From a virus (Duplodnaviria; Caudoviricetes): DNA of 59,086 nucleotides. Positions 5,154 to 55,613 of this stretch are shown here, piece after piece. Under the pieces are notes generated by a model. The model was not told the origin of the DNA. It did no database searches and saw only the letters and a program-made list of their open reading frames with translations. The stretch covers positions 1-59,086 of IMG/VR virus record IMGVR_UViG_3300008108_000133. One strand, written 5' to 3'. The first letter of the stretch is position 1, and each line of letters opens with the position of its first letter. The position numbers and the translations under genes are program-made.

Positions 5154-8100
5154 GTGGCACTTAAGAAACCATCAGATTTATTTAATTCGCAAGATATCTC
5201 TGGAGTATTTGAAACGCCAGAAGTTTCTTCAGACATTGTAGAAAGTTACGATAAATTTCGTATTAACTTTGATAGAGTTAACGAACTTTCTGAAAAAGTA
5301 GAAACATTATCTCAACAACTTTCTGAAAAACTGAGCAGAACTGAACTTGAGAATGCAATGCTTTCTCAGTTAATGATTCTTGATGAAAATTTTAAGTCCT
5401 TTCAAAATCAGATTAATGGAATTAATAAAGAAGATTTAAGAGAATTTAAAAGCACTGTTTTTAATCTTGCGGAACTTGTTGGGAATATTGTAGAAAATGA
5501 GATCCCAAAATATAAAAAGCAAGTTACTAAGAGTGAACTCTATGTTAGCGAGAAAGTTAATCAAATTCAAGAAGTAATAGAAGAAAATATAATCAATATT
5601 CGTGAAGAGATTGATACTAAATTTGGTAATATTGCCGAAGTTGTTGACCATAACATTGAATGTCTTAATCAACAAATTCAAGAAAACTCGTCTAAAATTA
5701 AAGAGACTACAAAAGTTTATAATAATCTTTCTCAAGTTTTAGAAAATAAAATTTTAAAGGAAAATCAAAAATTTGAAGAATATTCGAATTTAATTAAAAA
5801 TCTTTCTTATGCATTTGATGAACTTTCTGAAATTTTTAAAGAAGAACTTTCTGTATCATCGCATCTGAATGAAGAGAAGTTCAAAGAGTATCAAAAAGAA
5901 ATTGAAAGTAGACATATTGAAATCCAAACTTCTATTGATACTCGTTTAGAAGACTATCGGAAAGATCTTGTTGATATAAAAACAGATGTTGCTATCAATG
6001 AACAGCATATCAAGAATGTAGATAACTATCTGCAAGAAAATCATAAAGAAATTGTTCAACTTAAAGAAGAAGTTTTTTCTCAGATTGAAAAATTACCTGT
6101 TGGAAATTTACAAGAGAATCTTGAAAGATTAGAAAAGAAAATTGATTACATCAAAGAAACATATTCTAAGATTGAATCTGAAGACTTAGTAAAAGAAGTT
6201 ATTTCTGAAGGTCTTTTAAACGAACCCCCAGAAACAAAGAATTCAGATTCTCTTACACCACTCAATCAAAACTTTGTAACTCTAGAACAACTTCAAGAGC
6301 ATTATCGTCTATTCATCAATCGTATTCAGCAACAGCTTGCTACCATTGGTGGTGGTGGTGAAACACAACTTAAGTATCTTGATGATGTTGTTGGTATTGC
6401 TACCGATCCAAGTTCTTATGATGGGAAGTTTCTTAAGTATGACCATTCTCTAGGTAAGTTTGTATTTGAAACTGTTTCTGGTGGTGGGGGTGGTATTCAA
6501 GGAATTCAAGGAATTCAAGGTACTGATGGTTCTAATGGCACTCAAGGTACTCAAGGTACTCAAGGTACTGATGGTGCTACTGGTACTCAAGGTATTGCTG
6601 GATCTCAAGGTACTCAAGGTATTCAAGGTTCTCAAGGAATTACGGGTTCTGGTACTCAAGGAACCACAGGATCTCAAGGCATTCAAGGTACTCAAGGTAC
6701 TGAAGGTACTCAAGGAACCACAGGATCTCAAGGCATTCAAGGTACTCAAGGTACTGAAGGTACTCAAGGAACTGTAGGTACTCAAGGCACTGAAGGTACT
6801 CAAGGAACCACAGGATCTCAAGGTATTCAAGGCACTGAAGGTACTCAAGGAACCACAGGATCTCAAGGTATTCAAGGTACTGATGGAACTTCAGGTACTC
6901 AAGGAACCACAGGATCTCAAGGTATTCAAGGTATTCAAGGTACTGAAGGTGCTCAAGGAACCCAAGGAACTCAAGGAACCACAGGTACTCAAGGTACTCA
7001 AGGTACTGAAGGTGCTCAAGGAACCCAAGGAACCACAGGTACTCAAGGTACTCAAGGTACTCAAGGTACTGAAGGTGCTCAAGGAACCCAAGGAACCACG
7101 GGTACTCAAGGTACTGAAGGTACTCAAGGAACCACAGGTACTCAAGGCACTCAAGGCACTCAAGGTACTGAAGGTGCTCAAGGAACCCAAGGAACCACAG
7201 GTATTCAAGGTACTACTGGAACACAAGGTATTCAGGGTATTCAGGGTGCTACATCGAGTGCCTTGGGATATTATGGAAGTTTTTATGACACTACCAATCA
7301 AGTTAGTGCCGGAACAACTGCAAGAAATCTAGTTGCGATTGGTCAAACTGCAGAATCATATGCGGTCAATATTGTAGACGGGACAAAAATTAAAGTAGAT
7401 AACTCTGGTGTTTATAATGTCCAATTTAGTTTTCAATTAGAGAAAACAAATGCATCTACTGATACAGTTGATATTTGGATTGCTAAAAATGGAAGTGATG
7501 TTCCATATACTGATAGTCAAATTACAATTCAAGGTGCTGGAGAAACAGAGATTCCTGCTTGGAACTTTGTATTGTCATTAAATGCGGGAGATTATATTGA
7601 ATTTTATTGGTCTTCCAGTGATGCGGATATGCAGTTGTCTACACTTCCAGCAGGAAGTAATCCAACTCGACCTGTTAGCCCTTCAGTTATTGTAACTATT
7701 GCGGAAGTAGCAAGTGCATTATCTGGAGCTTCTGGAGGAGGAACACAAGGAATTCAAGGAATCCAAGGTACTGGAGGAACTCAAGGAATTCAAGGAGCAT
7801 CGGGTATTCAAGGTACTCAAGGAATATCGGGTACTGAAGGTGCAGCAGGTACTCAAGGTACTCAAGGTACTCAAGGTACTCAAGGTACTGAAGGTGCTCA
7901 AGGAACCCAAGGAACGACAGGTATTCAAGGTACTCAAGGTACTGAAGGTGCTCAAGGAATCCAAGGAACTCAAGGAACCACAGGTACTCAAGGCACTCAA
8001 GGTACTGAAGGTGCTCAAGGAACCCAAGGAACCACAGGTACTCAAGGAATATCAGGTACTGAAGGTGCAGCAGGTACTCAAGGAACCACAGGTGCTCAAG

Positions 8101-8765
8101 GTACTGAAGGTACTCAAGGAATATCAGGTACACAAGGAATTCAAGGTACTCAAGGAACCACAGGTACTCAAGGAATATCAGGTACTCAAGGAACCACAGG
8201 TGCTCAAGGTATAACAGGTGCTCAAGGAACCACAGGTGCTCAAGGTACTCAAGGTACTCAAGGAATTCAGGGAAGTGATGGTGTAGGCACTCAAGGAATT
8301 CAAGGAATTAGTGGAGTAACTGTTTTAGGTTCAAATAATAACTATAGCGGAATCACAACTTTTAGTGGAAATGTATTTACAACTGCAGGATTGCAGGTAC
8401 AACAAGTAGAAGAAACATATAATACCTATAGTACTTCAATAGCATCTGCAGCAGTTGTTTCTCTTGATTGTTCAACTGGAAATACTTTCTACGTTACTTC
8501 AACAGTTAGTGGAAACTGGACTGCAAATCTTACCAACTTGAATTTAAGTGCAAATTGTTTGACTAATGTGACTTTGATGATTACACAAGGTACAACTGCT
8601 TATGTTCCAAATGCACTTCAAATTGGTGGTGTTTCACAAACAATCAATTGGCAAGGGGGATCAATCCCAACTGGAAATAATTCCAAGAAAGATGCAATTG
8701 CATTCACAATCTTCTATACAGGAAGTGTATATAATATCTTCGGACAACTTGTAACATTCGGATAA
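5154..8765 (+). CDS. large virion fibre protein: coiled coil + two collagen-like (G-X-Y) blocks + C1q/BclA-like domain
   Basis: ~400-aa coiled coil, GTQ/GIQ/GTE triplets, YGSFYDTT...AWNFVLSLNAGDYIE domain between the blocks. Confidence 0.8.
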   Translation: MALKKPSDLFNSQDISGVFETPEVSSDIVESYDKFRINFDRVNELSEKVETLSQQLSEKLSRTELENAMLSQLMILDENFKSFQNQINGINKEDLREFKSTVFNLAELVGNIVENEIPKYKKQVTKSELYVSEKVNQIQEVIEENIINIREEIDTKFGNIAEVVDHNIECLNQQIQENSSKIKETTKVYNNLSQVLENKILKENQKFEEYSNLIKNLSYAFDELSEIFKEELSVSSHLNEEKFKEYQKEIESRHIEIQTSIDTRLEDYRKDLVDIKTDVAINEQHIKNVDNYLQENHKEIVQLKEEVFSQIEKLPVGNLQENLERLEKKIDYIKETYSKIESEDLVKEVISEGLLNEPPETKNSDSLTPLNQNFVTLEQLQEHYRLFINRIQQQLATIGGGGETQLKYLDDVVGIATDPSSYDGKFLKYDHSLGKFVFETVSGGGGGIQGIQGIQGTDGSNGTQGTQGTQGTDGATGTQGIAGSQGTQGIQGSQGITGSGTQGTTGSQGIQGTQGTEGTQGTTGSQGIQGTQGTEGTQGTVGTQGTEGTQGTTGSQGIQGTEGTQGTTGSQGIQGTDGTSGTQGTTGSQGIQGIQGTEGAQGTQGTQGTTGTQGTQGTEGAQGTQGTTGTQGTQGTQGTEGAQGTQGTTGTQGTEGTQGTTGTQGTQGTQGTEGAQGTQGTTGIQGTTGTQGIQGIQGATSSALGYYGSFYDTTNQVSAGTTARNLVAIGQTAESYAVNIVDGTKIKVDNSGVYNVQFSFQLEKTNASTDTVDIWIAKNGSDVPYTDSQITIQGAGETEIPAWNFVLSLNAGDYIEFYWSSSDADMQLSTLPAGSNPTRPVSPSVIVTIAEVASALSGASGGGTQGIQGIQGTGGTQGIQGASGIQGTQGISGTEGAAGTQGTQGTQGTQGTEGAQGTQGTTGIQGTQGTEGAQGIQGTQGTTGTQGTQGTEGAQGTQGTTGTQGISGTEGAAGTQGTTGAQGTEGTQGISGTQGIQGTQGTTGTQGISGTQGTTGAQGITGAQGTTGAQGTQGTQGIQGSDGVGTQGIQGISGVTVLGSNNNYSGITTFSGNVFTTAGLQVQQVEETYNTYSTSIASAAVVSLDCSTGNTFYVTSTVSGNWTANLTNLNLSANCLTNVTLMITQGTTAYVPNALQIGGVSQTINWQGGSIPTGNNSKKDAIAFTIFYTGSVYNIFGQLVTFG
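6492..7250 (+). repeat. collagen-like 9-nt tandem repeat block 1 (ggtactcaa variants)
   Basis: Direct reading. Confidence 0.9.
7740..8312 (+). repeat. collagen-like 9-nt tandem repeat block 2
   Basis: Direct reading. Confidence 0.9.
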
Positions 8766-9636: not shown

Positions 9637-11445
9637 ATGCTATTTTCCAAATCTTATAGGAAATTTGATAGTAAAAAGTTTTTTGGAAAATTTAATTTTA
9701 AATCAACCAAACAACGATCAAAAACTAGTACGTCTTCTTTTAGTTATGCTGATGCCCCTAGTGTATCGGGTGAAGTAATACCTTGGGGTGTCCGCGCAGT
9801 CTGGCAAGGAGAAGACATTGCTAAACGAGGAAACTTTGCAAGCGATACTTATGCGTTTGTGATTGACTCTGGCGTATCAGATCAAACGGGAGATCTTAAC
9901 TTTGCTCCAGCAGAGTGGAGTAAGAGTTGGATTTCTGGGCAATCACCATTTACGGATGCTAATGGTCACGGAACTCATATTGCTGGAACCATTGGTGCTC
10001 TTGTTAATGGAAGGGGAATTGTCGGCGTTGCACCTGGAGCGCAGATTATTTCTCTAAAAGTCAACAATGATGCTGGTTTTGGTGATGGTTCAACAACTGC
10101 AAAGGCAGTTGACTATGCGATTGATGTTATTAATAAAAACAATCTGGATAAAAGCAAGGTCGTTATTAATCTTAGTATCAATGCGACCTTTGACCCATTG
10201 CTAAATTCGTCTGTTATTAATGGCGCTAATCAAGGTATTAAATTCGCAATTTCTGCTGGAAATAATGGAAAAGATGTAGATGGATTTTCTCCTGTGTCAA
10301 CTGGATATCATCCAAATGTCTTTACTGTTTCTGCAGTAGATAGCAGCAACAGAATGCCTTTTTGGTCTAATTGGGATCGTATTGATTCTAATGATAGTGT
10401 TGATGATGTTGATTTTTCTGCTCCTGGAGTTGGAATCCTTTCATATTATAAGAATAATCAACTCTCTGAGTTGAGCGGAACATCAATGGCAACTGCACAT
10501 ATTTCAGGTTTATTGATTACTGGTGGAGTTCAAGCGGGTAATTATGTAACTCCAAATTATTCGGATACATCAGATCCCTTTGCAATCACGAGTACACAGG
10601 TATTTAACCCTTCGGCAATAATTACATCTGGACCTTATCCGACACCTGCCCCTCCAGTATCCACATTTAAATTATCAGCACCCTCTAGCGTCAAAGAAGG
10701 TGAGACCCTGAAGGTCGATATTGCAACTACTAATCTTCGGGTTGGTTCTGACATGTATTGGCAAATTTCTGGAAATGGGATTGAGATGAATGATTTTTAT
10801 TCTATCAATAATCTCTGGGGTAATGCAATTGTTGCTGATAATGGAACATCTTCAATCAACTTTAATATTAAAAAAGATGGCATTACAGAAGGAAATGAAG
10901 TGATTAAATTTGAATTATTTGATAGTTCTCATCCAAGTACTAGAAAAAAAGTCACAGAATCACTTATTACTATTGAAGACACATCTAAGACTCCACCACC
11001 GATTCAATATCAATGGGGAACCACTGGTAATGATGTGATTAATGGTGGCGAATTTCGGGACACGATCACGGGTTCTTTGTCTTCTGGAACATCGCTGTCC
11101 GCAATGGGTTCTGGTCAAATTGATGTATTGATAGGAGGTTCTGATACTGATGTATTTGTTCTTGGTGACAGTCGTGGTATATTTTATAATGATGGAGTAA
11201 GTAATTCCTTAGGAAGATTTGATTATGCTCTCATCAAAGACTTTAAAGTTGGAGAGGACAAAATCCAAGTAAAATCTGGATTAGGCGGATATCTTTCTGA
11301 GGTTGTTAATGGAAATCTTTCGTTGTATTGGGATGTCAACAGGACGGGAAGGATAGAGACTAGTGGTTTCAGATCTGATGAATTGATTGCTGTATTTGAA
11401 GGAGTTACTGCTTTAAGTAATAGTGAGTACATTGCAGTGAGGTGA
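9637..11445 (+). CDS. subtilisin-family (S8) serine protease with Calx-beta-like and RTX-like C-terminal regions
   Basis: Catalytic triad motifs VIDSG, HGTHIAG, SGTSMA; GTTGNDVINGG and GGSDTDVFVLGD repeats. Confidence 0.9.
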   Translation: MLFSKSYRKFDSKKFFGKFNFKSTKQRSKTSTSSFSYADAPSVSGEVIPWGVRAVWQGEDIAKRGNFASDTYAFVIDSGVSDQTGDLNFAPAEWSKSWISGQSPFTDANGHGTHIAGTIGALVNGRGIVGVAPGAQIISLKVNNDAGFGDGSTTAKAVDYAIDVINKNNLDKSKVVINLSINATFDPLLNSSVINGANQGIKFAISAGNNGKDVDGFSPVSTGYHPNVFTVSAVDSSNRMPFWSNWDRIDSNDSVDDVDFSAPGVGILSYYKNNQLSELSGTSMATAHISGLLITGGVQAGNYVTPNYSDTSDPFAITSTQVFNPSAIITSGPYPTPAPPVSTFKLSAPSSVKEGETLKVDIATTNLRVGSDMYWQISGNGIEMNDFYSINNLWGNAIVADNGTSSINFNIKKDGITEGNEVIKFELFDSSHPSTRKKVTESLITIEDTSKTPPPIQYQWGTTGNDVINGGEFRDTITGSLSSGTSLSAMGSGQIDVLIGGSDTDVFVLGDSRGIFYNDGVSNSLGRFDYALIKDFKVGEDKIQVKSGLGGYLSEVVNGNLSLYWDVNRTGRIETSGFRSDELIAVFEGVTALSNSEYIAVR

Positions 11446-11499: not shown

Positions 11500-11539
11500 C
11501 AACAACAGGTTAAGGATTACAACAATCTCTTAACACTTG

Positions 11540-11641
11540 TGCTCCCGTTAACCGAGACCTATGGGAGGGTAAATACGTCTCTCATATCCGCACTGGAGGG
11601 TGGTGCGGAGCATAACGATACCAGTTCGTCCCCCCGAACTC
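11540..11641 (+). ncRNA. structured psbA leader, PhotoRC-II-like RNA motif
   Basis: Stems gagac/gtctc, tccgcact/ggtgcgga, agttcg/cgaact; position upstream of a phage psbA matches the known motif. Confidence 0.7.
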
Positions 11642-11662
11642 TTATCTAACACTCTTAACAAA

Positions 11663-12742
11663 ATGACTGCTACAATTTCACGTCAACAAAAATCGAATAC
11701 TTGGGAACAATTCTGCAGCTGGATCACCAGCACCGACAACCGCCTCTATGTGGGTTGGTTCGGCGTTCTGATGATCCCCTGCTTGCTTGCTGCAACTACT
11801 TGCTTCATTATCGCATTCATCGGTGCTCCCCCAGTGGACATTGATGGCATCCGTGAACCTGTTGCTGGTTCTCTGATGTACGGAAACAACATCATCTCTG
11901 GTGCTGTTATTCCTTCGTCCAATGCTATTGGACTGCACTTTTACCCCATCTGGGAAGCTGCTTCCCTGGATGAGTGGCTCTACAACGGTGGTCCTTTCCA
12001 ACTTGTTGTATTCCACTTCCTCATCGGCATCTATGCCTATATGGGACGTGAGTGGGAACTCTCCTACCGCCTGGGTATGCGTCCTTGGATCTGCGTTGCT
12101 TACAGCGCACCTGTTGCTGCTGCAAGCGCAGTGTTCCTCGTCTATCCTTTCGGTCAAGGTTCTTTCTCTGATGCGATGCCTCTGGGTATCTCTGGTACAT
12201 TCAACTACATGCTTGTGTTCCAGGCAGAGCACAACATCCTGATGCACCCCTTCCATATGCTTGGAGTTGCTGGTGTCTTCGGTGGTTCTCTGTTCAGTGC
12301 TATGCACGGTTCTCTGGTTACTTCCTCGCTGGTTCGTGAAACCACCGAGAACGAGTCGCAGAACTATGGTTACAAGTTCGGTCAAGAAGAAGAGACTTAT
12401 AACATCGTTGCTGCTCACGGTTATTTCGGTCGCCTTATTTTCCAATACGCTTCCTTTAATAACTCCCGTTCGCTGCACTTCTTCCTCGCTGCTTGGCCCG
12501 TTGTAGGCATCTGGTTCACTGCTCTTGGTGTTTCTACGATGGCCTTCAATTTGAATGGCTTCAACTTTAATCAGTCTATCGTTGATGGACAAGGTAAAGT
12601 TATTAACACCTGGGCTGACGTTCTAAACCGCGCTGGACTGGGAATGGAGGTAATGCACGAGAGAAATGCTCATAATTTCCCTCTTGACCTCGCTGCTTCT
12701 GAAGCAACTCCTGTTGCTCTTACTGCTCCCGCAATCGGTTGA
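11663..12742 (+). CDS. psbA: photosystem II D1 protein
   Basis: Full 359-aa D1 (MTATISRQQ...[13 protein letters not shown]); no intron; true start ATG 11663. Confidence 0.99.
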
Positions 12743-15411: not shown

Positions 15412-15552
15412 TTAGTAAGGATAGTATGGATAATGTGAATAATAAGGGCAATATCTATCATAGTAAGGATAGCACCCATAACGATAGTAGTCATAATAGT
15501 CATAGTATCTTCTATGGTAGTAGGAATAATTGTAAGGTCTCGGATAATACAT
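15412..15552 (-). CDS. 46-aa peptide, 23 of 46 residues Tyr (below the ORF-track cutoff)
   Basis: Hand-translated MYYPRPYNYSYYHRRYYDYYDYYRYGCYPYYDRYCPYYSHYPYYPY; AGGAG RBS 7 nt upstream; stop abuts next RBS. Confidence 0.75.
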   Translation of the reverse strand: MYYPRPYNYSYYHRRYYDYYDYYRYGCYPYYDRYCPYYSHYPYYPY

Positions 15553-16297
15553 TTGAGTCTCCTGTTTGGTTGGTTATCTCAAAAGTCCAAATGTCGTATC
15601 CCTCCTGTCTGATGTAATCAAAAGGAATCCAACAGTATCCGTTGTCTCCCCAACTCGTTCCAAAACTATTCTTTGCTAAGAATAATCTTTTTCCTAAATC
15701 ATAACCAACCATACACATTGCGTGCCCACCAAGACTTTTTTCCTTTCTGGAAGGAAGATATACAGTAGAAATACTTTCATTTAGATCCATAAAACTATCA
15801 TAAATTTCCATTCCAAATACAACAGGTTTGTTGTTATTCAGCACTTCAGTAATGTAATAAGTGCTAATAAGTTTTTGATACTTAAGAACCTTTCTTTTCT
15901 TGGCATCTTCATAGCATTCATCTGTTGGTTTATCATCAAACTTTTCTACGTCATAAGGCCATAGATCTTCAGAACAAACTCCAAACTTGGATAATGATTT
16001 CAGACCATCTCTTAAATAAATTCCATTATCTTCTGAAATACTTTCATACTCAGCGCGAGTGTTATAATAAATGAATAATCTACTGAGATGTATGAAGTAT
16101 TCTGGATAATTTTGCCTTACCTTCATTTCATATGCATTTGTTAACGCATTAGAACTGCAACTACCCAATGTTCCTTGTGATTCCACAATCGTATCCCACT
16201 CACGAAGATCTACAAATTCTCGTAGAACTGCGCTATTATCTGATTGATAGATGTAATCTCTTACATCGGGTAGAGATGGTTTGATATTAAAGTTCAT
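15512..16297 (-). CDS. papain-like cysteine peptidase (C1A)
   Basis: VDLREW, QGTLGSC (catalytic Cys), GGHAMCMVGYD (His), KNSFGTSWGDNGY (Asn). Confidence 0.92.
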   Translation of the reverse strand: MNFNIKPSLPDVRDYIYQSDNSAVLREFVDLREWDTIVESQGTLGSCSSNALTNAYEMKVRQNYPEYFIHLSRLFIYYNTRAEYESISEDNGIYLRDGLKSLSKFGVCSEDLWPYDVEKFDDKPTDECYEDAKKRKVLKYQKLISTYYITEVLNNNKPVVFGMEIYDSFMDLNESISTVYLPSRKEKSLGGHAMCMVGYDLGKRLFLAKNSFGTSWGDNGYCWIPFDYIRQEGYDIWTFEITNQTGDSNVLSETLQLFLLP

Positions 16298-16929: not shown

Positions 16930-17499
16930 TTAGATGATGTGCCAATCTCCACCGCGACAGAATATGTTTACCGATTGGTAAGGTACTTCCATAACGTATT
17001 TGTCGGCACCATCAATATAACTACCGTCAGTGGTAGTAACGGTGACCTTACGATTTCCTAATGGTGGACCCATCTCTGCTTTCACGATGATTTCACAGCA
17101 GTCGATGCAGTTCTCAGGTAATGAAATAGTAACAGGTTCGTCACTGTTGACACCGATATAGTAATCATCGCAAGTAGCAGTATAATCAGATGAAACCAGG
17201 ACGCTTTTGCACTTACAGGTACACACTCCCGGTTCCCCTTGAGGTCCTGGTGGTCCTTGCGGTCCTGGTGGTCCTTGCGGTCCTGGTGGTCCCGGAGGAC
17301 CCGGAGGGCATTCATCGGGACAATCATCGCCGTCTATAACTACATTGATATTGTTAGTGCCACCGTCACGAGTATTCAGTATCTCTGTTATTTCGGCACG
17401 AATCGACTGAATGTTTCCAAGAACATTTGGATCGTTATTTCTTTGATATTGTGCAAGAAGATTATAAAGATCAATAAGTCTTCTTTCTGCTGAGTCCAT
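16930..17499 (-). CDS. Cys-rich collagen-like protein with the same C-terminal domain
   Basis: GPPGPQ run flanked by CPDEC and CTCKC; [12 protein letters not shown]...RGGDWHII. Confidence 0.75.
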
Positions 17500-17512
17500 A
17501 GTTAGTCTCCTT

Positions 17513-17540
17513 AAAAAAAGAGGGGGAGTTATATCCCCCT
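17513..17540 (-). terminator. terminator/attenuator after the first island gene
   Basis: Minus strand AGGGGGA-UAUAAC-UCCCCCU-CUUUUUUU. Confidence 0.75.
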
Positions 17541-17561: not shown

Positions 17562-18389
17562 TCAGCGAACAGCGTTGCTGGTGGAGGACTGACCTACACC
17601 TGCCATGGTTCCAAAGTTAACCATACCCTGACGGGTCTCAGCAATCTGACTATTCAGAGCGTTGAGTTGTGAATTAACTTGTGAGGACAGGGCAGCAAAC
17701 TGGTTGTTGAACAGACCATCTCTGACGCCCCAGTAATCTGAACGGCAACCTTGAAGGTCTGTGTTACGCTCAATCAGAAGACGATTGAGTTCATCATTCT
17801 TGAGAGAATTGATGAGGTCTCTAGTCTTCTCATTTTCGTAAGCAATTTGCTTGCTGGTGTCATACTTGCTCTCAGCAATTTCTCTGCTGAGTTGATGCTG
17901 ACCAAGTGCTACAGCAGTAGCAACTTTTTCTGTTGCAAGGGCATTAGCAGCAGCGGTCTTCTCAGTGGCAAGAAGAATTTCAGAAGATAACTTCTGAGAT
18001 GACATATCTGTGAAAGCTTTCAGAGCAGCAAGGTCACGGGAATTATCAAAGTCTCTTGCTTGAGAAGCAATATAGAAGTCAGCAGCACGTTGCTGAATCT
18101 TGTCAGCAGCTTCATCAATTTTAACTTGGTTGTTATGACCAGTGACTAAAACATCACGGTTGGTGTCTTCTGAAGAAGCAGCAATAGCATACTTGACATC
18201 ACCGAAACCTAATGCTTGCTCTCTACGAATGTCAGAATCGCCAGTGAGAACTGCTTGACGAACATCTGATGCACGAGTAGCAACATCGTAACGGATTTCT
18301 CCACGCTCTACAGAACCTTCTCTACGAATGTCTGAGTGCTGTGCTGCAAGTGCTGCCCAAGGATCGGGCATATATACTTGATCTGCCAT
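17562..18389 (-). CDS. Ala-rich helical protein, probably highly expressed (275 aa)
   Basis: AAGGAG RBS, GCT/CGT/AAC-rich codons, internal SDIRRE repeats, ENEKTRDLI motif. Confidence 0.8.
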   Translation of the reverse strand: MADQVYMPDPWAALAAQHSDIRREGSVERGEIRYDVATRASDVRQAVLTGDSDIRREQALGFGDVKYAIAASSEDTNRDVLVTGHNNQVKIDEAADKIQQRAADFYIASQARDFDNSRDLAALKAFTDMSSQKLSSEILLATEKTAAANALATEKVATAVALGQHQLSREIAESKYDTSKQIAYENEKTRDLINSLKNDELNRLLIERNTDLQGCRSDYWGVRDGLFNNQFAALSSQVNSQLNALNSQIAETRQGMVNFGTMAGVGQSSTSNAVR

Positions 18390-18429
18390 TTTTTTGTTTC
18401 TCCTTAAAGGAAAGAAAGGTTAGTTTGTA

Positions 18430-18630
18430 GAGCAATACAATCCAGATCTTCCCTGACATAATGCCAGAAGAGTCGAGTCCACAGAAGACTGTAGAAGAGT
18501 CCTCTGGGATTATTACACTTCAGAATTGGATTGTATTACCCAATTAGAGGTGAGGCATTAATAAAGGAACCATTGCTGGAATCTTTTAGTAATACATCGG
18601 GTCTCTAATGAAGAGGATTGCTCCTCTTAT
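18430..18630 (-). ncRNA. putative structured leader RNA/ncRNA (three hairpin domains, two GCAA tetraloops)
   Basis: Stems 18611-17/18622-28, 18543-49/18603-09, 18434-44/18527-37, 18458-68/18503-13; extensions pair only as G-U on the minus strand. Confidence 0.65.
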
Positions 18631-18633
18631 CAA

Positions 18634-18640
18634 TATTTAG
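18634..18640 (-). promoter_or_regulatory. T4-type late promoter motif for the island
   Basis: CTAAATA on the minus strand 5 nt before the first hairpin. Confidence 0.55.
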
Positions 18641-18645
18641 TAAAT

Positions 18646-18999
18646 TTATTTTGTCTTAAGATGAACACTTTTTCGTTCTTCTTGCCACTTCAAGAAACCT
18701 GCCATAGTATTTGGATACTTTGGTTTTCTTCTACCTCTTGGTTTCTTTTGATGTTTCATAGCGATTTCATAATTACTCCAAGTTAATTCAAGTTCTTCTG
18801 GTCCGTTATCGAAGTGATAGAATCCATCTGTCCAAAAGTCAAACGAAGATTTATTTTGTATATGATCGCACCACAATTTAAATGATGCAAATACAAATAA
18901 CCATCCAAGTCTGAGTTTTGAAAAGAAGTCTTTGAGTGTGATCATTTTTACTCCTTTAAACTCATCATTATATAGTCTGGGGTAAGTAAAAATTTTCAT
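18646..18999 (-). CDS. hypothetical protein with basic C-terminus
   Basis: ORF track; likely start MITLKD with AAGGAG RBS. Confidence 0.55.
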   Translation of the reverse strand: MKIFTYPRLYNDEFKGVKMITLKDFFSKLRLGWLFVFASFKLWCDHIQNKSSFDFWTDGFYHFDNGPEELELTWSNYEIAMKHQKKPRGRRKPKYPNTMAGFLKWQEERKSVHLKTK

Positions 19000-19053: not shown

Positions 19054-19914
19054 ATGACTTCTTCAACACTTTCACAACCTATTCAACAACGAGGATGGTT
19101 TGATGTCCTGGATGACTGGCTTAAACGAGATCGCTTTGTATTTGTGGGTTGGTCTGGATTACTACTTTTTCCCACTGCTTATCTTGCCCTTGGTGGCTGG
19201 CTTACTGGCACAACGTTTGTTATAGGGTTTATGCTTCGTCAGTTTGAGATTGCAAGACTTGTAGGCATCCGTCCTTATAACGCTATTGCTTTCTCTGGTC
19301 CTATTGCTGTATTCGTTTCTGTGTTCCTGATGTATCCACTGGGTCAGTCCAGTTGGTTCTTCGCACCTTCCTTTGGTGTTGCAGCGATTTTTAGGTTCCT
19401 CTTATTCCTTCAAGGTTTTCATAACTGGACGCTCAACCCCTTTCATATGATGGGAGTTGCTGGTATACTAGGTGGAGCATTACTCTGTGCAATTCACGGA
19501 GCAACAGTTGAAAATACATTATTTGAAGACAGTGACCAAGCAAACACTTTCAAAGCATTTGAACCGACTCAAGAGGAAGAGACGTATTCTATGGTCACGG
19601 CGAATCGTTTCTGGTCTCAGATTTTTGGTATCGCTTTTAGCAACAAGAGGTGGCTTCATTTCTTTATGCTCTTTGTTCCCGTCATGGGACTCTGGACAAG
19701 TTCCATTGGAATCATTGGTTTGGGTTTGAACTTGAGAGCTTATGATTTTGTAAGTCAGGAGATTCGTGCTGCTGAAGACCCGGAATTTGAAACCTTTGTA
19801 ACAAAGAACATATTATTGAATGAGGGAATTCGTGCTTGGATGGCTCCAGTAGACCAACCACATATGAATCTGGTGCTACCCGAAGAGGTATTACCACGCG
19901 GGAACGCCTTGTGA
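19054..19914 (+). CDS. psbD: photosystem II D2 protein with in-frame internal deletion (~67 aa); may be non-functional or an assembly artefact
   Basis: D2 N- and C-termini intact ([16 protein letters not shown]...LPRGNAL) but GTTFV joined directly to IGFMLRQ; 286 aa. Confidence 0.95.
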
Positions 19915-23581: not shown

Positions 23582-24892
23582 ATGCCTAATCAGTTTATGT
23601 CTCCAGAAGGAGACTTAGAAACCACTAATTATTTTGTTACTGAACATTGGTTGATTGACCAGTATGTTGGTGATAAGTTATTTGGTTGGGGTTATAATTC
23701 TAGTGGACCACTAGGAGATAATACTACAACTACTAGATATGTTCCGGTCACAACATTTGCAGGAGGAACCAACTGGAAGTCTATTGCGGTGGGACAAGGA
23801 TATGGCGGTTCTATAGCAATTAAAACTGATGGAACTTTATGGGGTTGGGGTTCTCAGAGTTTTGGAAATTTGGGTACATTCAATTTTCCATCTGCTAGTA
23901 GAATCACTCCAGTAACAACCTTTTTAGGAGGAACCGACTGGAAACAAGCTTCTGCGGAAAATGAGTGTACGGCAGCAGTTAAAACTGATGGAACTTTGTG
24001 GGTTTGGGGTACATCTACCCAACTAGGAATAAACAGAACTGGTACTAATGTATGTACTCCAGTTACAACATTTTCAGGTGGAACCAACTGGAAACAAGTT
24101 GATATTGCAAGAAGACCATATTCTTTAGGTACTAATGCTAGTTCTATGGCAGCAATCAAAACTGATGGAACCCTATGGGTTTGGGGAGATAATTTTAATG
24201 CAATGTTGGGAGTTAATGATGCAGCTACTAGATGCACTCCAGTCACAATATTTGGAGGAGGGACTAACTGGAGACAAGTTTCGTGCGGAAGCGGTTTTAC
24301 GGCTGCAATAAAAACCGATGGAACTTTATGGACTTGGGGAGTTAATACTTTTGGACAATTAGGTATCAATACAACAACCGATAGATCCACTCCAGTCACA
24401 ACATTCGCAGGAGGAACCAACTGGAAGCAAGTTTCTTGCGGATATTTACATACTACAGCAATCAAAACTGATGGAACCCTATGGATTTGGGGCGCTGGGG
24501 GTAATGGACGATTAGGGGATAATGTATCAATATCAACTAGATCCACTCCAATCACAACATTTGCTGGAGGAAACAATTGGAAACAAGTAAGTGCTGGATG
24601 GTCACATACGGCAGCAATCAAAACTGATGGAACCTTATGGACTTGGGGTTATGATGTTTATGGTTATGGATTATTAGCTCAAGGTTCTACGACTCCATCT
24701 GATAGATCCACTCCAGTTACAACATTTGCTGGAGGAACCAACTGGAAACAAGTTTCTTGTGGAAGATTTCATACTATTGCAGTAACTTCTGGTGAACAAA
24801 TAGATATCTTCGATCCTGCTGCACCTATTGTTACACCACCTGCTCCTCCACCACCTCCACCACCGCCACCAGGTGGTCGCGATGATAACTAA
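23582..24892 (+). CDS. RCC1/BLIP-II-type 7-blade beta-propeller protein with poly-Pro tail
   Basis: 7 repeats of TPVTTFAGGTNWKQVS...AAIKTDGTLWxWG; TATAAATA at 23528. Confidence 0.85.
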   Translation: MPNQFMSPEGDLETTNYFVTEHWLIDQYVGDKLFGWGYNSSGPLGDNTTTTRYVPVTTFAGGTNWKSIAVGQGYGGSIAIKTDGTLWGWGSQSFGNLGTFNFPSASRITPVTTFLGGTDWKQASAENECTAAVKTDGTLWVWGTSTQLGINRTGTNVCTPVTTFSGGTNWKQVDIARRPYSLGTNASSMAAIKTDGTLWVWGDNFNAMLGVNDAATRCTPVTIFGGGTNWRQVSCGSGFTAAIKTDGTLWTWGVNTFGQLGINTTTDRSTPVTTFAGGTNWKQVSCGYLHTTAIKTDGTLWIWGAGGNGRLGDNVSISTRSTPITTFAGGNNWKQVSAGWSHTAAIKTDGTLWTWGYDVYGYGLLAQGSTTPSDRSTPVTTFAGGTNWKQVSCGRFHTIAVTSGEQIDIFDPAAPIVTPPAPPPPPPPPPGGRDDN

Positions 24893-25616: not shown

Positions 25617-26849
25617 ATGCCAACTTTCAATTTTAAACTTTCTGACGGTAGAGATTTAGGAGATGTTGTTTCCTGGATTCCTAAAGATTACTTGCTATCT
25701 GTTTATCCGCAGATTGGAAACCAGTTAATTACTCCAGAGTTGTGGACTTGGGGTTATACTAATAATGGAGATCTGGGAACAAATGATAATATCTCAAGAT
25801 CAACACCAGTTACAACATTTGCAGGTGGTGCTAACTGGAAACAATGTTCCGGTAGGTATGCGATAAAAAATGATGGGACCTTATGGACTTGGGGTTGGGG
25901 ATTATTAGGAAATCTTGGGAATAATGCAACAACCGATAGGTCTACTCCAGTCACAACATTTGCTGGAGGAACCAACTGGAAACAAGTTGCTAATGGATAT
26001 CTGTATGCTGTTGCTGTTAAAACTGATGGAACTTTATGGGGTTGGGGATTTAATGGAAGAAATTCATTAGGATCTAATGATACCACAAATAGAAATAGTC
26101 CAATCCCAACATTTGCGGGAGGAACCAATTGGAAACAAGTTGATTCTGGATATGCTCATGTTGCAGCAGTTAAAACCGATGGAACTTTATGGACTTGGGG
26201 ATATAGTCTTGGAACTTTTTCAGAAGAGGCTGGACAATTAGGTACTAATGCGACAGGAAATAGACCTACTCCAGTCACAACATTTGCTGGTGGAACCAAT
26301 TGGAAACAAGTTTCTTGCGGGCAGTATCATACTGCAGCAATTAAAACTGATGGAACTTTATGGACTTGGGGGTATAATAATTGGGCCCAAATAGGTGACA
26401 ATACAACTAGATCTAGATCAACTCCAGTCACAACATTTGCAGGAGGGACAAATTGGAAACAAGTTTCTTGTGGGCAGTATCATACTGCAGCAATCAAAAC
26501 TGATGGAACATTATGGACCTGGGGACGAGGATCTAGTGGTAGACTTGGGACTAATAATGGTTCAGATAGGTCCACTCCAGTCACAACATTTGCTGGTGGA
26601 ACCAATTGGAAACAAATTGCTAGTGGAAATAATAATACTGCAGCAACCAAAACTGATGGAACTTTGTGGGTTTGGGGAGATGGTTCATTTGGAGTGTTAG
26701 GTAATAATGTAAACGGGACGAGTGCATTAACTCCAGTCACAACATTTGCAGGAGGAACTAATTGGAAAACTTTAGGATTTTTGAGATTTTATAGTGGACC
26801 TGGAATTTTTACAGCAATCAAAACTTCGGATGATTTACAAGGTATTTAA
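25617..26849 (+). CDS. RCC1-type 7-blade beta-propeller protein
   Basis: 7 repeats of the same unit. Confidence 0.85.
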   Translation: MPTFNFKLSDGRDLGDVVSWIPKDYLLSVYPQIGNQLITPELWTWGYTNNGDLGTNDNISRSTPVTTFAGGANWKQCSGRYAIKNDGTLWTWGWGLLGNLGNNATTDRSTPVTTFAGGTNWKQVANGYLYAVAVKTDGTLWGWGFNGRNSLGSNDTTNRNSPIPTFAGGTNWKQVDSGYAHVAAVKTDGTLWTWGYSLGTFSEEAGQLGTNATGNRPTPVTTFAGGTNWKQVSCGQYHTAAIKTDGTLWTWGYNNWAQIGDNTTRSRSTPVTTFAGGTNWKQVSCGQYHTAAIKTDGTLWTWGRGSSGRLGTNNGSDRSTPVTTFAGGTNWKQIASGNNNTAATKTDGTLWVWGDGSFGVLGNNVNGTSALTPVTTFAGGTNWKTLGFLRFYSGPGIFTAIKTSDDLQGI

Positions 26850-30815: not shown

Positions 30816-31180
30816 GAGAGTGTGGAGAATGCACTGCTTGTTGCACTTGGTTACAAGGTTATGCTTATGGTTATGAGTTTGGTAGTGGAAAGTCTTGTAA
30901 GTTCTTATGTGAATCCGGATGTAGTGTACATAAGGTAAGACCAAAAGTATGTGAAGGATATTTCTGTGCTTGGGCTCAAGAACTTATATCTGAAGAAATG
31001 AGACCTGATAAGTGTGGAGTTCTTGTTTCTGTGGAAAATAATGAAAACGGTCAGTATCTTAGAATTGTTCCAATCAAAAAAGAAATAAATAAAGATATAC
31101 TAGAATATTTTAAAAATTGGAGTGTTATAATGAACACTCCTGTGATTTATCCAAAAAATAATTCCTGGGAAGTCCTCTAA
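30812..31180 (+). CDS. YkgJ-like CxxCxxCC metal-cluster protein
   Basis: CGECTACC...CKFL...GCSVH..RP.VC..Y.C. Confidence 0.75.
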   Translation: MRECGECTACCTWLQGYAYGYEFGSGKSCKFLCESGCSVHKVRPKVCEGYFCAWAQELISEEMRPDKCGVLVSVENNENGQYLRIVPIKKEINKDILEYFKNWSVIMNTPVIYPKNNSWEVL

Positions 31181-33459
31181 TGCCTACTTTTTACAACTAC
31201 ACTGAGAATGGAGTAGTATACTCTCTTGATGATGTTTTTGTACCTGCTGATGCTTTTAGGCAGGGAAACCTATGGGTATGGGGATCTAGATCTATAGGAA
31301 ATTTTAGAGGAACTAATTCTGGTGTTTGTACTCCTGTCACCACATTTGCGGGATCTTCAAACTGGCTCACTGTTGCTAATGGAAATTATAATAGTGCAGC
31401 AATCAAAACTGATGGAACCTTATGGACTTGGGGTGAAGGATTTGGTGCAGGAATCGGAGATGGATTTAAAATCGATAGATGCACCCCAGTTACAACATTC
31501 GCAGGAGGAAACAATTGGAAGCAAGTTTCTTGTGCATACAATACTGGAGCAGCAATAAAGACTGATGGAACCTTATGGGTTTGGGGTGGTAATTATTATG
31601 CACTACTTGCTGATAATACGCAAACTGATAGATGTACTCCTGTCACCACATTTGCTGGAGGAACCAACTGGAAACAGGTAAGCCTTGGATATCACGCAGC
31701 AGCAATCAAAACTGATGGAACTCTATGGACTTGGGGGCAAATTGAATATGGTGCATTGGGTAATAATACATCTGGTACAGTTACTTGGGGTAGAAAAGTA
31801 TCAACACCAATCACAACATTTGCAGGAGGAACCAACTGGAAACAAGTTTCGACTTCCATAAATGGGAACACCGCAGCAATCAAAACTGATGGAACCTTAT
31901 GGGTTTGGGGTACAAATTCTTACGGAACTCTAGGGACTAATTCGGAGAGAGCTTCTCTTACTCCAGTCACAACATTTGCAGGAGGGACCAACTGGAAACA
32001 AGTTTCTGCTGGTGGATATAATGTATCAGCAATCAAAACTGATGGAACCTTATGGACTTGGGGACAAAGATCACACTCGGCAATTAACTATACAAGACCT
32101 CGTGGTATATCTACTCCATCTATGATAATCGGTGGTGGAAATAATTGGAAATCTGTTAGTACTGGGGGTTTCATAATAGCAACTAAAACCGATGGAACTC
32201 TTTGGTCTTGGGGAGAAAGACAGTCATCTATAGAAGGATTTTTAGTAAATAGAACTCCTATTTCTCCAAGAAATATTTTCCCAGGCACAAATTGGTCTAT
32301 TGCTTATGGAAATGATGATATGTATGTAATAGGCACCGATGGGAATTTATGGGGATGGGGAACTAATAGTAATGGAGAACTTGGAATTAATGCTACTGGA
32401 ACAAGAAGCACTCCTGTTACAACAATTACTGGTGGAACAAACTGGAAATCAGTTAGTGCGGGATTTAACACTGTAGCAGCAGTTAAAACTGATGGAACCT
32501 TATGGACTTGGGGTAGTAACTATAGAGGTTCAATAGGAGACGATACATCAACTAATAGAAGAACTCCAGTCACAACATTTGCGGGAGGAACTAATTGGTC
32601 AAATGTGAGTATTACTGATAATCAATGTGCAGCAGTTAAAACTGATGGAACTCTGTGGGTTTGGGGGAGGAATTTTAATTTTGCACTTGGAACTAATGAA
32701 GGAACATCTGTTACAAAACGAACACCAGTTACAACATTTTCGGGAGGAACTAATTGGAGTTCTGTAACTGTTGGATCTAATCTTATGCAGGCAATCAAAA
32801 CTGATGGAACATTATGGGTTTGGGGTGCGAATAATGCTGGTCAACTTGGAGTCAATGATACAATTGATAAAGCTACTCCCGTTACAACATTTGCGGGAGG
32901 AACAAATTGGTCGCAATTAGGAAGGGGGGGATCCTCAGCTATTAAAACTGATGGAACCTTATGGGTTTGGGGATATAATTCATACGCTCGTCTGGGTATC
33001 GGTGATGATCCAAATAACAAATCAACTCCAGTCACAACATTTGCAGGAGGAACTAATTGGAGTTCTATTTCAGATTTTTCTAATAAAATAGCAGCAATAA
33101 AAACTGACGGAACCCTCTGGATGTGGGGAGATAATGGTGGTTCTGGTAAATTTGGAGTTTTGGGTATTGGTGGGGAAACAAATGGAGCTGTCTTAACTCC
33201 TATCACAACATTTGCGGGAGGAACTAACTGGAAACTAGTCAATTGCTCTTCTTATTCTACTATTAATGCGGCAATCAAGACTGATGGAACCTTATGGATG
33301 TGGGGTGAACAGGGAAATGCTCAGTTTGGAATTGGTTCTAATGCTACCGTTTATGCTGCAACACCTATTACAACATTCGCAGGAGGAACCAATTGGAAAC
33401 AAGTTGAGGTAAAATATAGAAGAGTTTCTGCAATTCAATATCAAGACGATTACGTATAA
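31180..33459 (+). CDS. RCC1-type double beta-propeller protein (14 blades)
   Basis: 14 LWxWG repeats counted in the translation. Confidence 0.85.
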   Translation: MPTFYNYTENGVVYSLDDVFVPADAFRQGNLWVWGSRSIGNFRGTNSGVCTPVTTFAGSSNWLTVANGNYNSAAIKTDGTLWTWGEGFGAGIGDGFKIDRCTPVTTFAGGNNWKQVSCAYNTGAAIKTDGTLWVWGGNYYALLADNTQTDRCTPVTTFAGGTNWKQVSLGYHAAAIKTDGTLWTWGQIEYGALGNNTSGTVTWGRKVSTPITTFAGGTNWKQVSTSINGNTAAIKTDGTLWVWGTNSYGTLGTNSERASLTPVTTFAGGTNWKQVSAGGYNVSAIKTDGTLWTWGQRSHSAINYTRPRGISTPSMIIGGGNNWKSVSTGGFIIATKTDGTLWSWGERQSSIEGFLVNRTPISPRNIFPGTNWSIAYGNDDMYVIGTDGNLWGWGTNSNGELGINATGTRSTPVTTITGGTNWKSVSAGFNTVAAVKTDGTLWTWGSNYRGSIGDDTSTNRRTPVTTFAGGTNWSNVSITDNQCAAVKTDGTLWVWGRNFNFALGTNEGTSVTKRTPVTTFSGGTNWSSVTVGSNLMQAIKTDGTLWVWGANNAGQLGVNDTIDKATPVTTFAGGTNWSQLGRGGSSAIKTDGTLWVWGYNSYARLGIGDDPNNKSTPVTTFAGGTNWSSISDFSNKIAAIKTDGTLWMWGDNGGSGKFGVLGIGGETNGAVLTPITTFAGGTNWKLVNCSSYSTINAAIKTDGTLWMWGEQGNAQFGIGSNATVYAATPITTFAGGTNWKQVEVKYRRVSAIQYQDDYV

Positions 33460-55494: not shown

Positions 55495-55583
55495 CGTTCA
55501 TCTGGAATACCAGACGGAAGTAAGCCGACGCGGAACGGATTCGTTCATCCCATATGGGACGCAAACGCCGACTGAAGGAACGC
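55495..55583 (+). ncRNA. tandem glutamine riboswitch (glnA / Downstream-peptide class), two aptamers
   Basis: Two units CGTTCATC-hairpin-GACG...GCCGAC..GGAACG (55495-55537, 55542-55582) upstream of a YRG peptide. Confidence 0.8.
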
Positions 55584-55613
55584 TCTTTAGCCTCAAAATT
55601 AAGGAGAACCCTA

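Follow-up and report, generated by a model that had tools for sequence, protein, structure and literature searches.

The leader and its transcription unit

The window analysed here, meaning the whole stretch of 59,086 nucleotides (nt), is a 59-kb fragment of an IMG/VR record (IMGVR_UViG_3300008108_000133), estimated to be 24% complete. On its minus strand, directly in front of an open reading frame (ORF) of 275 amino acids (aa), lies an RNA element of about 200 nt, which folds into three hairpin domains (P1, P2, and P3) and is preceded by a box resembling the late promoters of phage T4. We read the window as coming from an uncultured freshwater T4-like cyanophage: the DNA sequencing runs that contain this stretch are labelled as lake or freshwater metagenomes, and the nearest named relative, found for one gene, is Synechococcus phage S-SRM01, a freshwater myovirus (53.8%). 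Positions are those of the window throughout, and the element is read on the minus strand. The features of the unit, some of them taken from the computed minimum free energy (MFE) structure, are as follows:

18634-18641, minus strand: T4-type late-promoter box, ACTAAATA in the window
18611-18628, minus strand: P1 hairpin, 7 bp with a GCAA loop (MFE)
18543-18609, minus strand: P2 domain, with outer stem AUUAGAG/CUCUAAU formed by 18603-18609 with 18543-18549 (MFE)
18553-18598, minus strand: P2 inner irregular helix, enclosed by the outer stem, with tip CCA-GCAA-UGG in the window
18430-18541, minus strand: P3 domain, a 112-nt irregular hairpin (MFE)
18527-18541 with 18430-18444, minus strand: P3 base stem, 15 bp, GGGUAAUACAAUCCA/UGGAUUGUAUUGCUC
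within 18430-18541, minus strand: P3 stem AUAAUCCCAGA/UCUGGCAUUAU, reproduced by the MFE structure
within 18430-18541, minus strand: P3 middle stem, AUAAUCCCAGAGGA/UCUUCUGGCAUUAU
18478-18495, minus strand: P3 tip hairpin (MFE)
18464-18508, minus strand: repeat with a possible alternative pairing (from alignment pair counts)
18390-18429, minus strand: linker, 40 nt, with a pyrimidine tract (18406-18419) and the Shine-Dalgarno (SD) sequence AAGGAG (18400-18405)
17562-18389, minus strand: ORF of 275 aa, downstream of the leader, all-helical by prediction, with its start codon at 18387-18389
17511-17540, minus strand: intrinsic-terminator-like hairpin, AGGGGGAUAUAACUCCCCCU with a U run behind it (scans of the window and of locus L001)

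The stretch 18390-18645 folds on the minus strand at -81.7 kcal/mol (z -6.87), an energy that none of 200 dinucleotide shuffles equalled, against a z of -2.16 for the plus strand of the same stretch in the shuffle test. The initial annotation, made by a model from the sequence alone, had proposed a structured RNA of about 200 nt at this place, and the computation bears this out on the minus strand. Indeed, the CTAAATA motif that it had pointed to is found at 18634-18640, followed 5 nt on by the hairpin AAGAGGA-GCAA-UCCUCUU of P1, and the computed structure contains both the long stem AUUAGAG...CCA-GCAA-UGG...CUCUAAU and a third domain with the 15-bp base stem and the second of the two inner stems that had been named. 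The other inner stem, UUCUGA/UCAGGG, is present in the window but does not hold in this form across the relatives, where the consensus is UUCUAAAG, with an invariant pair G215-C279 in the alignment described below (A2). The helices of P2 and P3 (about 26 and 40 bp, respectively) are irregular and interrupted by internal loops.

The repeat that had been noticed in the third domain is equally real: UCGUCUG appears in the consensus, with one copy in the middle of P3 and one in its 3' strand. As a result of this duplication, the P3 5' strand CAGAGGACU has two possible partners, namely the P3 3' strand and the middle copy AGUCUUCUG. The alternative helix that the latter would form (9 bp) is paired in 86.3% of the alignment cells, against 32-57% when partners are slid, and its pair 229/248 is CG in 15 of the 23 aligned sequences, GC in two, GU in one, and unpaired in five. 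At the single informative column, the alternative pairing is less well preserved than the normal P3 pairing (18/23 sequences against 23/23). This alternative pairing may correspond to a co-transcriptional intermediate or to a switch.

Distribution of the leader

The 275-aa ORF has relatives at 47 IMG/VR loci, and at 21 of these the leader is matched as well, at 70-85% identity (blastn and nhmmer). A search with a pattern of the inner P2 helix matched 27 viral and 16 metagenome stretches, and de-duplication across IMG/VR and metagenome contigs left 28 distinct copies: 23 full-length ones (the window included), four cut by contig ends, and one with a divergent P3 domain (L178). Each of the 23 full-length copies lies directly 5' of ATGGC(A/C/T)G, the start of an ORF homologue, so that the element occupies a fixed place relative to its gene. 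It is also a single-copy element, being found once, on the sense strand, in each of two complete genomes, which are 258 and 250 kb long and bear terminal repeats, as well as in one record that is 76% complete.

Other searches added little to this family. A 15-mer scan of viral contigs returned mostly chance matches among the matches listed and added one member (L067), and a P3-only pattern retrieved 15 known members together with one chance match in a G+C-rich coding region (L189), with no copy that has the conserved P3 sequence while lacking P2. The leader had no blastn match in GenBank phage records, and no copy was present in two records that hold only distant relatives of the ORF. Likewise, a covariance model built on inner P2 and P3 detected no copy at 26 loci with distant or odd ORF relatives, which comprise the 23 loci L025-L047 (33-54% identity) as well as L013, L014, and L020. 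A TAAATA motif occurs less than 450 nt from the deduced start at 9 of the 24 distant-relative loci scanned, at varied distances, and only L025 among the 24 has one before a start of the MAD type, 176 nt upstream. The leader of L025 consists of small hairpins in a row (z -2.97) of unrelated sequence; it is one case, which is too few for an argument. As a side observation, the region 2560-3040 of L013, where the locus table places an ORF match of 70%, is G+C-rich and bears no resemblance to the start of the ORF. Either this contig is chimeric or the table does not correspond to the stored DNA; the locus was left out of the analysis.

Covariation, selection, and coding strand

In order to evaluate the fold across the family, the MFE structure of the window was mapped onto the alignment A2 of 23 sequences, which gave 79 pairs and 1743 counted cells. 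Standard pairs fill 91.2% of these cells, a share that drops to 39-50% once the partners are displaced by 1-3 columns; the comparison favours the mapped structure in so far as this was taken from one member, the window itself. Covariation among homologues, which the initial annotation had named as a check of its proposal along with folding energy, is present: 23 of the 79 pairs are changed on both sides, as compared with 13.7 +/- 2.2 in shuffles (0/500 reach the observed count) and 4-12 in slid controls. These pairs are distributed over all the helices, with four in P1, two each in the outer and inner helices of P2, nine in the base of P3, three in its middle, and two in its tip. Furthermore, RNAalifold, when applied to the alignment alone, recovered P1, inner P2, and P3 (58 pairs, 16 of them compensatory).

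The helices nevertheless differ in how they are conserved. P1 is paired in 90.4% of cells, with both-side changes in 4/7 pairs, and its loop, as read from the alignment, is a strict GNRA tetraloop in 15/23 sequences. The outer helix of P2 is paired in 98.8% of cells, with a both-side change from G-C to A-U in three sequences, and the middle and tip helices of P3 in 93.9% and 88.6%, respectively. By contrast, in the inner helix of P2, 11 of the 17 pairs never vary, mismatches are conserved, and the sequence is almost invariant. Among the fixed mismatches of inner P2 and mid-P3, one is a non-pair in 22/23 sequences (A.C in 20 and C.C in two, the latter with adjoining double compensatory changes). 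The loop at the tip of P2, conversely, is not conserved (AGCAAU, AUUUUU, AAAAAU, CAAAA, UUAUU), and so, of the two GNRA loops initially reported, the one in P1 holds for most of the family and the one in P2 does not extend to relatives. Overall, the sequence is invariant, fixed mismatches included, over the roughly 45 nt of inner P2 and in mid-P3, while P1 and the base of P3 drift and covary. This combination points to a sequence-specific reader of P2/P3, rather than to a requirement for structure alone.

Two further variants illustrate where the element tolerates change. In 7/23 sequences and in L178, a single site of P2 accommodates an optional hairpin of some 60 nt, the sequence of which differs from case to case. 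L178 also keeps P1 and the sequence of P2, and has in the place of P3 a long hairpin that is AT-rich and unrelated in sequence (z -6.76).

The leader is moreover better conserved than the neutral sites of the gene it precedes. In 153 pairwise comparisons among the 18 loci whose ORF is complete, P1-P3 have a mean identity of 0.767, against 0.636 at the 4-fold sites and 0.596 at the third positions of the gene, and the leader exceeds the gene's neutral sites in 96% of these comparisons. In L024, for instance, the leader is 0.79 identical and the protein 0.49.

As to the coding strand, the claim that several G-U pairs work only on the minus strand is substantiated by the alignment, in which G-U occupies 183 cells at 32 pair positions and A-C 54 cells, 25 of which fall at two positions that are no real pairs. 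These counts, together with the context (promoter box, ORF, and GNRA loop of P1), therefore assign the RNA to the minus strand, an assignment that does not derive from fold energy.

Promoter, linker, and terminator

The TAAATA core of the promoter box is invariant in 23/23 copies and lies 5-7 nt 5' of P1. The full box is TATAAATA in 18/23 copies, ACTAAATA in 4/23 (the window included), and CATAAATA in 1/23. The T4 late promoter is described as an 8-bp TATA box at -13 to -6 (PMC2988020), and NATAAATA as a motif upstream of late-gene homologues in cyanomyoviruses (PMC2984593). Late transcription units of the T4 type have their 8-bp TATAAATA box roughly one helical turn ahead of the start and lack a -35 element. 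By analogy with the T4 spacing, the box at 18634-18641 would place the transcription start (+1) at 18628, that is, at the first paired base of P1; given the spacing of 5-7 nt in the family, it would fall on this base or next to it in the other copies. Within the window, five of the seven TATAAATA boxes are located 20-46 nt before plus-strand ORF starts (20022, 22097, 23582, 24929, 44422), and the five leaders concerned are AU-rich and devoid of AAGGAG; hence the 239-nt leader, with its canonical AAGGAG, is an exception in the window.

Downstream of P3, a scan of the linker (18390-18429) found no promoter-like or terminator-like site. The pyrimidine tract and the SD sequence form a short, weak hairpin (81.7% paired), and the predicted probability that the SD sequence is unpaired is 0.07-0.33 in all 19 sequences computed. 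At the other end of the unit, a G+C-rich hairpin directly follows the ORF stop in 18/18 complete loci, followed, by reading, by a run of 4-7 T in 15/18, TTCTTTT in L019, and TTATT in L022 and L016. After this terminator come an SD sequence and the start of a conserved next gene, which in the window is a collagen-like one. Since the terminator follows the first ORF in 18/18 complete loci, the leader heads a one-gene unit, and the conserved module is promoter, leader, ORF, and terminator. The initial description of the RNA as leading a whole island of genes was thus too wide. As for the three roles that had been suggested, namely a cis-regulator, a stabiliser, or an RNA component of the island, the placement between the TAAATA box and the ORF in 23/23 copies supports an action in cis, and no evidence was found for an island component.

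The upstream side is more variable. The neighbour is an ORF with an AT-hook-like tail in 3/23 loci and a 47-aa ORF in 4/23, with nothing notable on that strand in the rest. In the window, the ORF just 5' of the box (18646-18999, minus strand, 117 aa) has a strongly basic C-terminal tail of AT-hook-like character, KKPRGRRKPKYPN, and homologues at the same place are confined, among the 23 loci, to the window, L001, and L024. A scan of the minus strand between 18430 and 18645 found no terminator for the upstream gene, P1 being followed by CAUUAGAG. In L186 (record G003), five Rfam tRNA matches within 1-1336 stand just upstream of the promoter-leader-ORF unit; in L025, which is without the motif, the stretch 2680-2755 upstream of a TATAAATA box looks tRNA-like by reading alone. 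In other lineages a protein gene takes this upstream position.

Among RNA-library data, the region is represented by a 610-nt lake-metatranscriptome contig, identical to the window, which spans 18095-18704 and bridges leader and ORF. For such RNA-library contigs strand and ends are not given, their depth provides no ranking of genes, and the parts left uncovered prove nothing.

The gene served by the leader

The product of the ORF 17562-18389 has no Pfam match and a weak match (E 6.5e-4) to phrog_9415, a PHROG of unknown function. It has 939 relatives at E <= 0.001, with no functional name among the 120 of them that were listed; its nearest Atlas clusters are all viral and unnamed, and tblastn gave no match in 50,697 GenBank phage records. 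AlphaFold2, run with 26 sequences, modelled a single helix over residues 19-261 (mean pLDDT 80.5, pTM 0.28), and the product is predicted to be coiled-coil-like. Given its collagen-like and tail-fibre-like neighbours, our guess is that it might be a fibrous virion or assembly protein.

A probable cis-acting leader of a late message

Taken together, these observations lead us to consider it reasonably probable that the element is a cis-acting 5' leader of a late, essentially one-gene message of freshwater T4-like cyanophages. What we infer beyond its structure and place (the start site, the late timing, a stabilising effect, a bound factor, and any switch) could be arranged as follows. Transcription from the late-promoter box would start at about 18628, at the first base of P1, such that the message would open with this loop-capped hairpin, followed by the P2 and P3 hairpins, and then by a 40-nt open linker with its pyrimidine tract and strong Shine-Dalgarno sequence, before encoding the 275-aa coiled-coil-like protein and closing in the terminator hairpin. 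P1 and the mostly double-stranded leader would guard the message against decay that depends on access to its 5' end, as carried out by host nucleases of the RNase E/J type, and this protection, combined with the 3' terminator hairpin, would make for a long-lived and heavily used message. A specific recognition surface would be formed by mid-P3 together with the inner helix of P2 and the mismatches conserved in it, and its reader is likelier to be a protein than a small molecule. This reader would set how far the weak hairpin of pyrimidine tract and SD sequence holds back ribosome entry, a control in which the duplicated UCGUCUG, with its two partners for the P3 5' strand, may also serve.

Several observations weigh against this scenario. 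A plain stabiliser needs a 5' hairpin only, which leaves the invariance of about 45 nt of P2 and of mid-P3 unexplained. The difference between strands in fold energy is small across the family: with 40 shuffles each, the mean z of the 23 homologues is -5.94 for the sense and -4.72 for the antisense strand, the sense strand being lower in 20/23. With regard to the promoter, the window box ACTAAATA has a C at position 2 and so departs from the cyanomyovirus NATAAATA, TATAAATA is not enriched by count in the window (7 against 5.35 expected), and the metatranscriptome contig continues beyond the box for 63 nt, where it enters the upstream ORF, and must therefore stem from read-through or DNA carry-over and not from initiation at the box. 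As for translation, the anti-SD hairpin is weak and shows little variation, and its tract is deleted in L019. Inspection of the alignment also revealed no covariation between the purine-rich P3 loop GGGAAGGA and the pyrimidine tract; their pairing as an anti-anti-SD was rejected on finding no matching changes, L017 and L174 carrying a C without a partner change.

Alternative explanations

One alternative is a riboswitch, with P2 and P3 as its aptamer for a small molecule, and the alternative P3 pairing plus the hairpin of pyrimidine tract and SD sequence as its expression platform. The size and covariation of the element are typical of aptamers, many of its nucleotides are invariant, the SD sequence is predicted to be mostly paired in 19/19 sequences, the mutually exclusive helix is itself conserved (86.3% paired), and the presence of a glutamine riboswitch and a PhotoRC-II RNA in the window indicates that such cyanophages do carry RNAs of this kind. 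We nonetheless hold a riboswitch to be unlikely, considering that the protein encoded by its only gene is of coiled-coil, structural-looking type and has no role in metabolism or transport, that the element occurs once per genome, that conservation resides mostly in helices with no multi-helix junction (without the insert, there are just three hairpins in a row), that the anti-SD tract is dispensable in L019, and that no Rfam riboswitch matches. Another is a stable RNA of 200 nt made of P1-P3, which would be cut from the message in the linker, accumulate, and act in trans, for example as a decoy for a host nuclease or defence protein or as the partner of a phage protein. Helices close both ends of this body, the linker is single-stranded and AU-rich, sequence-invariant helices are apt for protein recognition, L178 keeps P2 and replaces P3 as a modular RNA would, and the unit of L186 comes just after a tRNA cluster (with a tRNA-like stretch, by reading, upstream in the motif-less L025). 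However, this stable non-coding RNA has in our view little chance of being the answer: none of the 23 full-length copies is found apart from the ORF, the scan gave no terminator of its own, and the window, searched with up to three mismatches, has no further copy of the conserved P2 18-mer and no complement to it. A bolder proposal is that the RNA is a new class of regulatory switch or a processed stable RNA of freshwater T4-like cyanophages, in which the invariant P2 helix and the duplicated UCGUCUG make up a two-state device, read by a phage or host factor or by a metabolite indicative of the infected cell's condition, and which times or doses a virion fibre protein or releases a trans-acting 200-nt RNA; we regard it as rather unlikely.

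P2 and/or P3 might be sites at which an RNase III-type enzyme cuts to yield the mature message, a role that would fit two long irregular helices of about 26 and 40 bp with internal loops at the head of a phage message. Yet RNase III substrates need little conservation of primary sequence, so that the invariance of P2 would go unexplained, and cutting would lose the P1 cap, whose spacing to the box is conserved; such a processing site therefore seems improbable to us. Finally, the conserved unit could be one of DNA (a palindromic protein site, an origin, or a packaging signal), with the RNA fold as a by-product. The antisense strand does also beat its shuffles, with a mean z of -4.72, and outdoes the sense strand in 3/23 sequences, and the upstream ORF has an AT-hook-like basic tail in 3/23 loci. 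But the excess of G-U over A-C cells (183 against 54, with 32 G-U positions), which would be mismatched on the other strand and in duplex DNA, the GNRA loops that exist on the minus strand only, the fixed orientation and spacing to box and ORF, and the lack of the AT-hook-like neighbour in 20/23 loci make a DNA-level element extremely improbable.

Some smaller candidates were also discarded. In the window, the P2 5' strand GUAUUAC is perfectly complementary to a GUAAUAC in the base of P3, but of the two only the latter varies among relatives, which indicates chance. Small ORFs within the leader (MYY, a 9-codon frame, and the ORF 18322-18459) were set aside because in relatives either the start or the frame is not preserved. 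A 17-mer from the P2 3' strand has four extra matches with three mismatches in coding regions (12158, 16848, 40308, and 42704), which makes five matches found against 0.39 expected (0/100 shuffles reach five); these extra matches may reflect a compositional effect.

Relation to known RNAs

When the whole window was compared with Rfam 15 (4227 models), only PhotoRC-II and the glutamine riboswitch reached their gathering scores, both of them elsewhere. For 18200-18900, searched at E values up to 10, the best of seven matches had an E of 1.7 and all were far below thresholds (freshwater-2, for example, scored 16.5 bits against a threshold of 49.9), and six related loci matched tRNAs only. The impression that the RNA is no known motif is thereby upheld at the level of Rfam 15 families, and the element would add a family to that database.

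A catalogue with which the element can be compared is that of Fremin et al. (2023, PMC10690425), which reports 8,495 candidate structured RNAs of 29-151 bases from IMG/VR intergenic regions. It resembles our case in its source data, in its reliance on covariation, and in that many candidates lie just upstream of genes; given the size range stated there, the whole 199-nt element is not one of its entries, while P2 or P3 alone might be listed as separate ones. The same paper names gene 32, candidate leaders upstream of GP32 and GP20 in phages, and the Rfam motifs GP20-a (RF02991) and GP20-b (RF03003) (PMC10690425). The translational operator of T4 gene 32 is bound by that gene's own product. This operator and these leaders are like the element in being structured, directly 5' of a single phage gene, and thought to set translation, but they differ in gene and fold, and the element is much larger, with no pseudoknot predicted. 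PhotoRC-II (RF01717) is likewise a cyanophage-specific structured 5' leader (of psbA) whose mechanism is unknown; it is, however, an unrelated model of 96 nt, which the element does not match, and it serves a photosynthesis gene rather than one of late structural type.

With regard to function, the 5' untranslated region (UTR) of Escherichia coli ompA is a stabiliser leader of 133 nt on the message of an abundant structural protein. The element has in common with it a long leader, a hairpin at or near the 5' end (a predicted one here), additional hairpins, and an open ribosome-binding region. It is unrelated in sequence and family, and its length of about 200 nt, three domains, and invariant helices go beyond end protection. 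RNase III sites, such as the inter-gene sites of phage T7 and the one in the lambda N leader, are similar as long irregular hairpins with internal loops at the heads of phage messages; they differ in being conserved in shape more than in sequence, as well as in host and phage family. By analogy, the element would in function most resemble 5' stabiliser leaders of the ompA type and phage translational operators.

Our literature search, judged mostly at abstract level, found no account of a leader of this kind, long and structured, on a late gene of cyanophages. In T4-like phages, the late genes are generally regarded as having very simple promoters and short leaders, a picture with which the other late-type genes of the window agree. 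The 239-nt leader, on which selection is stronger than on synonymous sites of the gene it precedes, would imply an added step of RNA-level control or protection for at least one late gene in widespread lake cyanophages. Moreover, RNase E activity matters during the infection of cyanobacteria, and a large, covarying, single-copy element that heads one gene offers a clean case for studying how phage messages survive or are tuned in these hosts, its weakness being that the phages are uncultured and that the protein belongs to no known family.

Other features of the window

A PhotoRC-II RNA (RF01717, 76.2 bits) at 11531-11623 on the plus strand reaches into the 5' end of the ORF listed at 11600-12742, a full-length Photo_RC one that is taken to be psbA. 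This identifies the record as that of a cyanophage. The glutamine riboswitch aptamer (RF01739) at 55540-55586, also on the plus strand, scores 36.5 bits, with a gathering score of 35. A second Photo_RC ORF (19054-19914, plus strand, 286 aa) covers profile positions 74-255 only and is thus rather small as reaction-centre proteins go. At 19062-19235, within this ORF, contigs from RNA libraries accumulate to a summed depth of up to 4174, and the accumulation probably consists of reads from many organisms on a conserved gene.

The window also has PhoH, tail-fibre, and baseplate-like genes. Collagen repeats occur in a 1203-aa protein with six repeat stretches (5154-8765, plus strand) and in a 189-aa protein (16930-17499, minus strand), the gene of the latter being the conserved one right after the terminator of the leader unit. 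A papain-family cysteine peptidase (15512-16297, minus strand, E 4.4e-15) and a subtilase (9637-11445, plus strand, E 1.6e-28) both sit in the region of phage structural and auxiliary genes. Lastly, three proteins with RCC1 repeats (beta-propeller) are encoded on the plus strand, at 23582-24892, 25617-26849, and 31180-33459; the first is preceded by a TATAAATA box, and the third shares 53.8% identity with an S-SRM01 protein.

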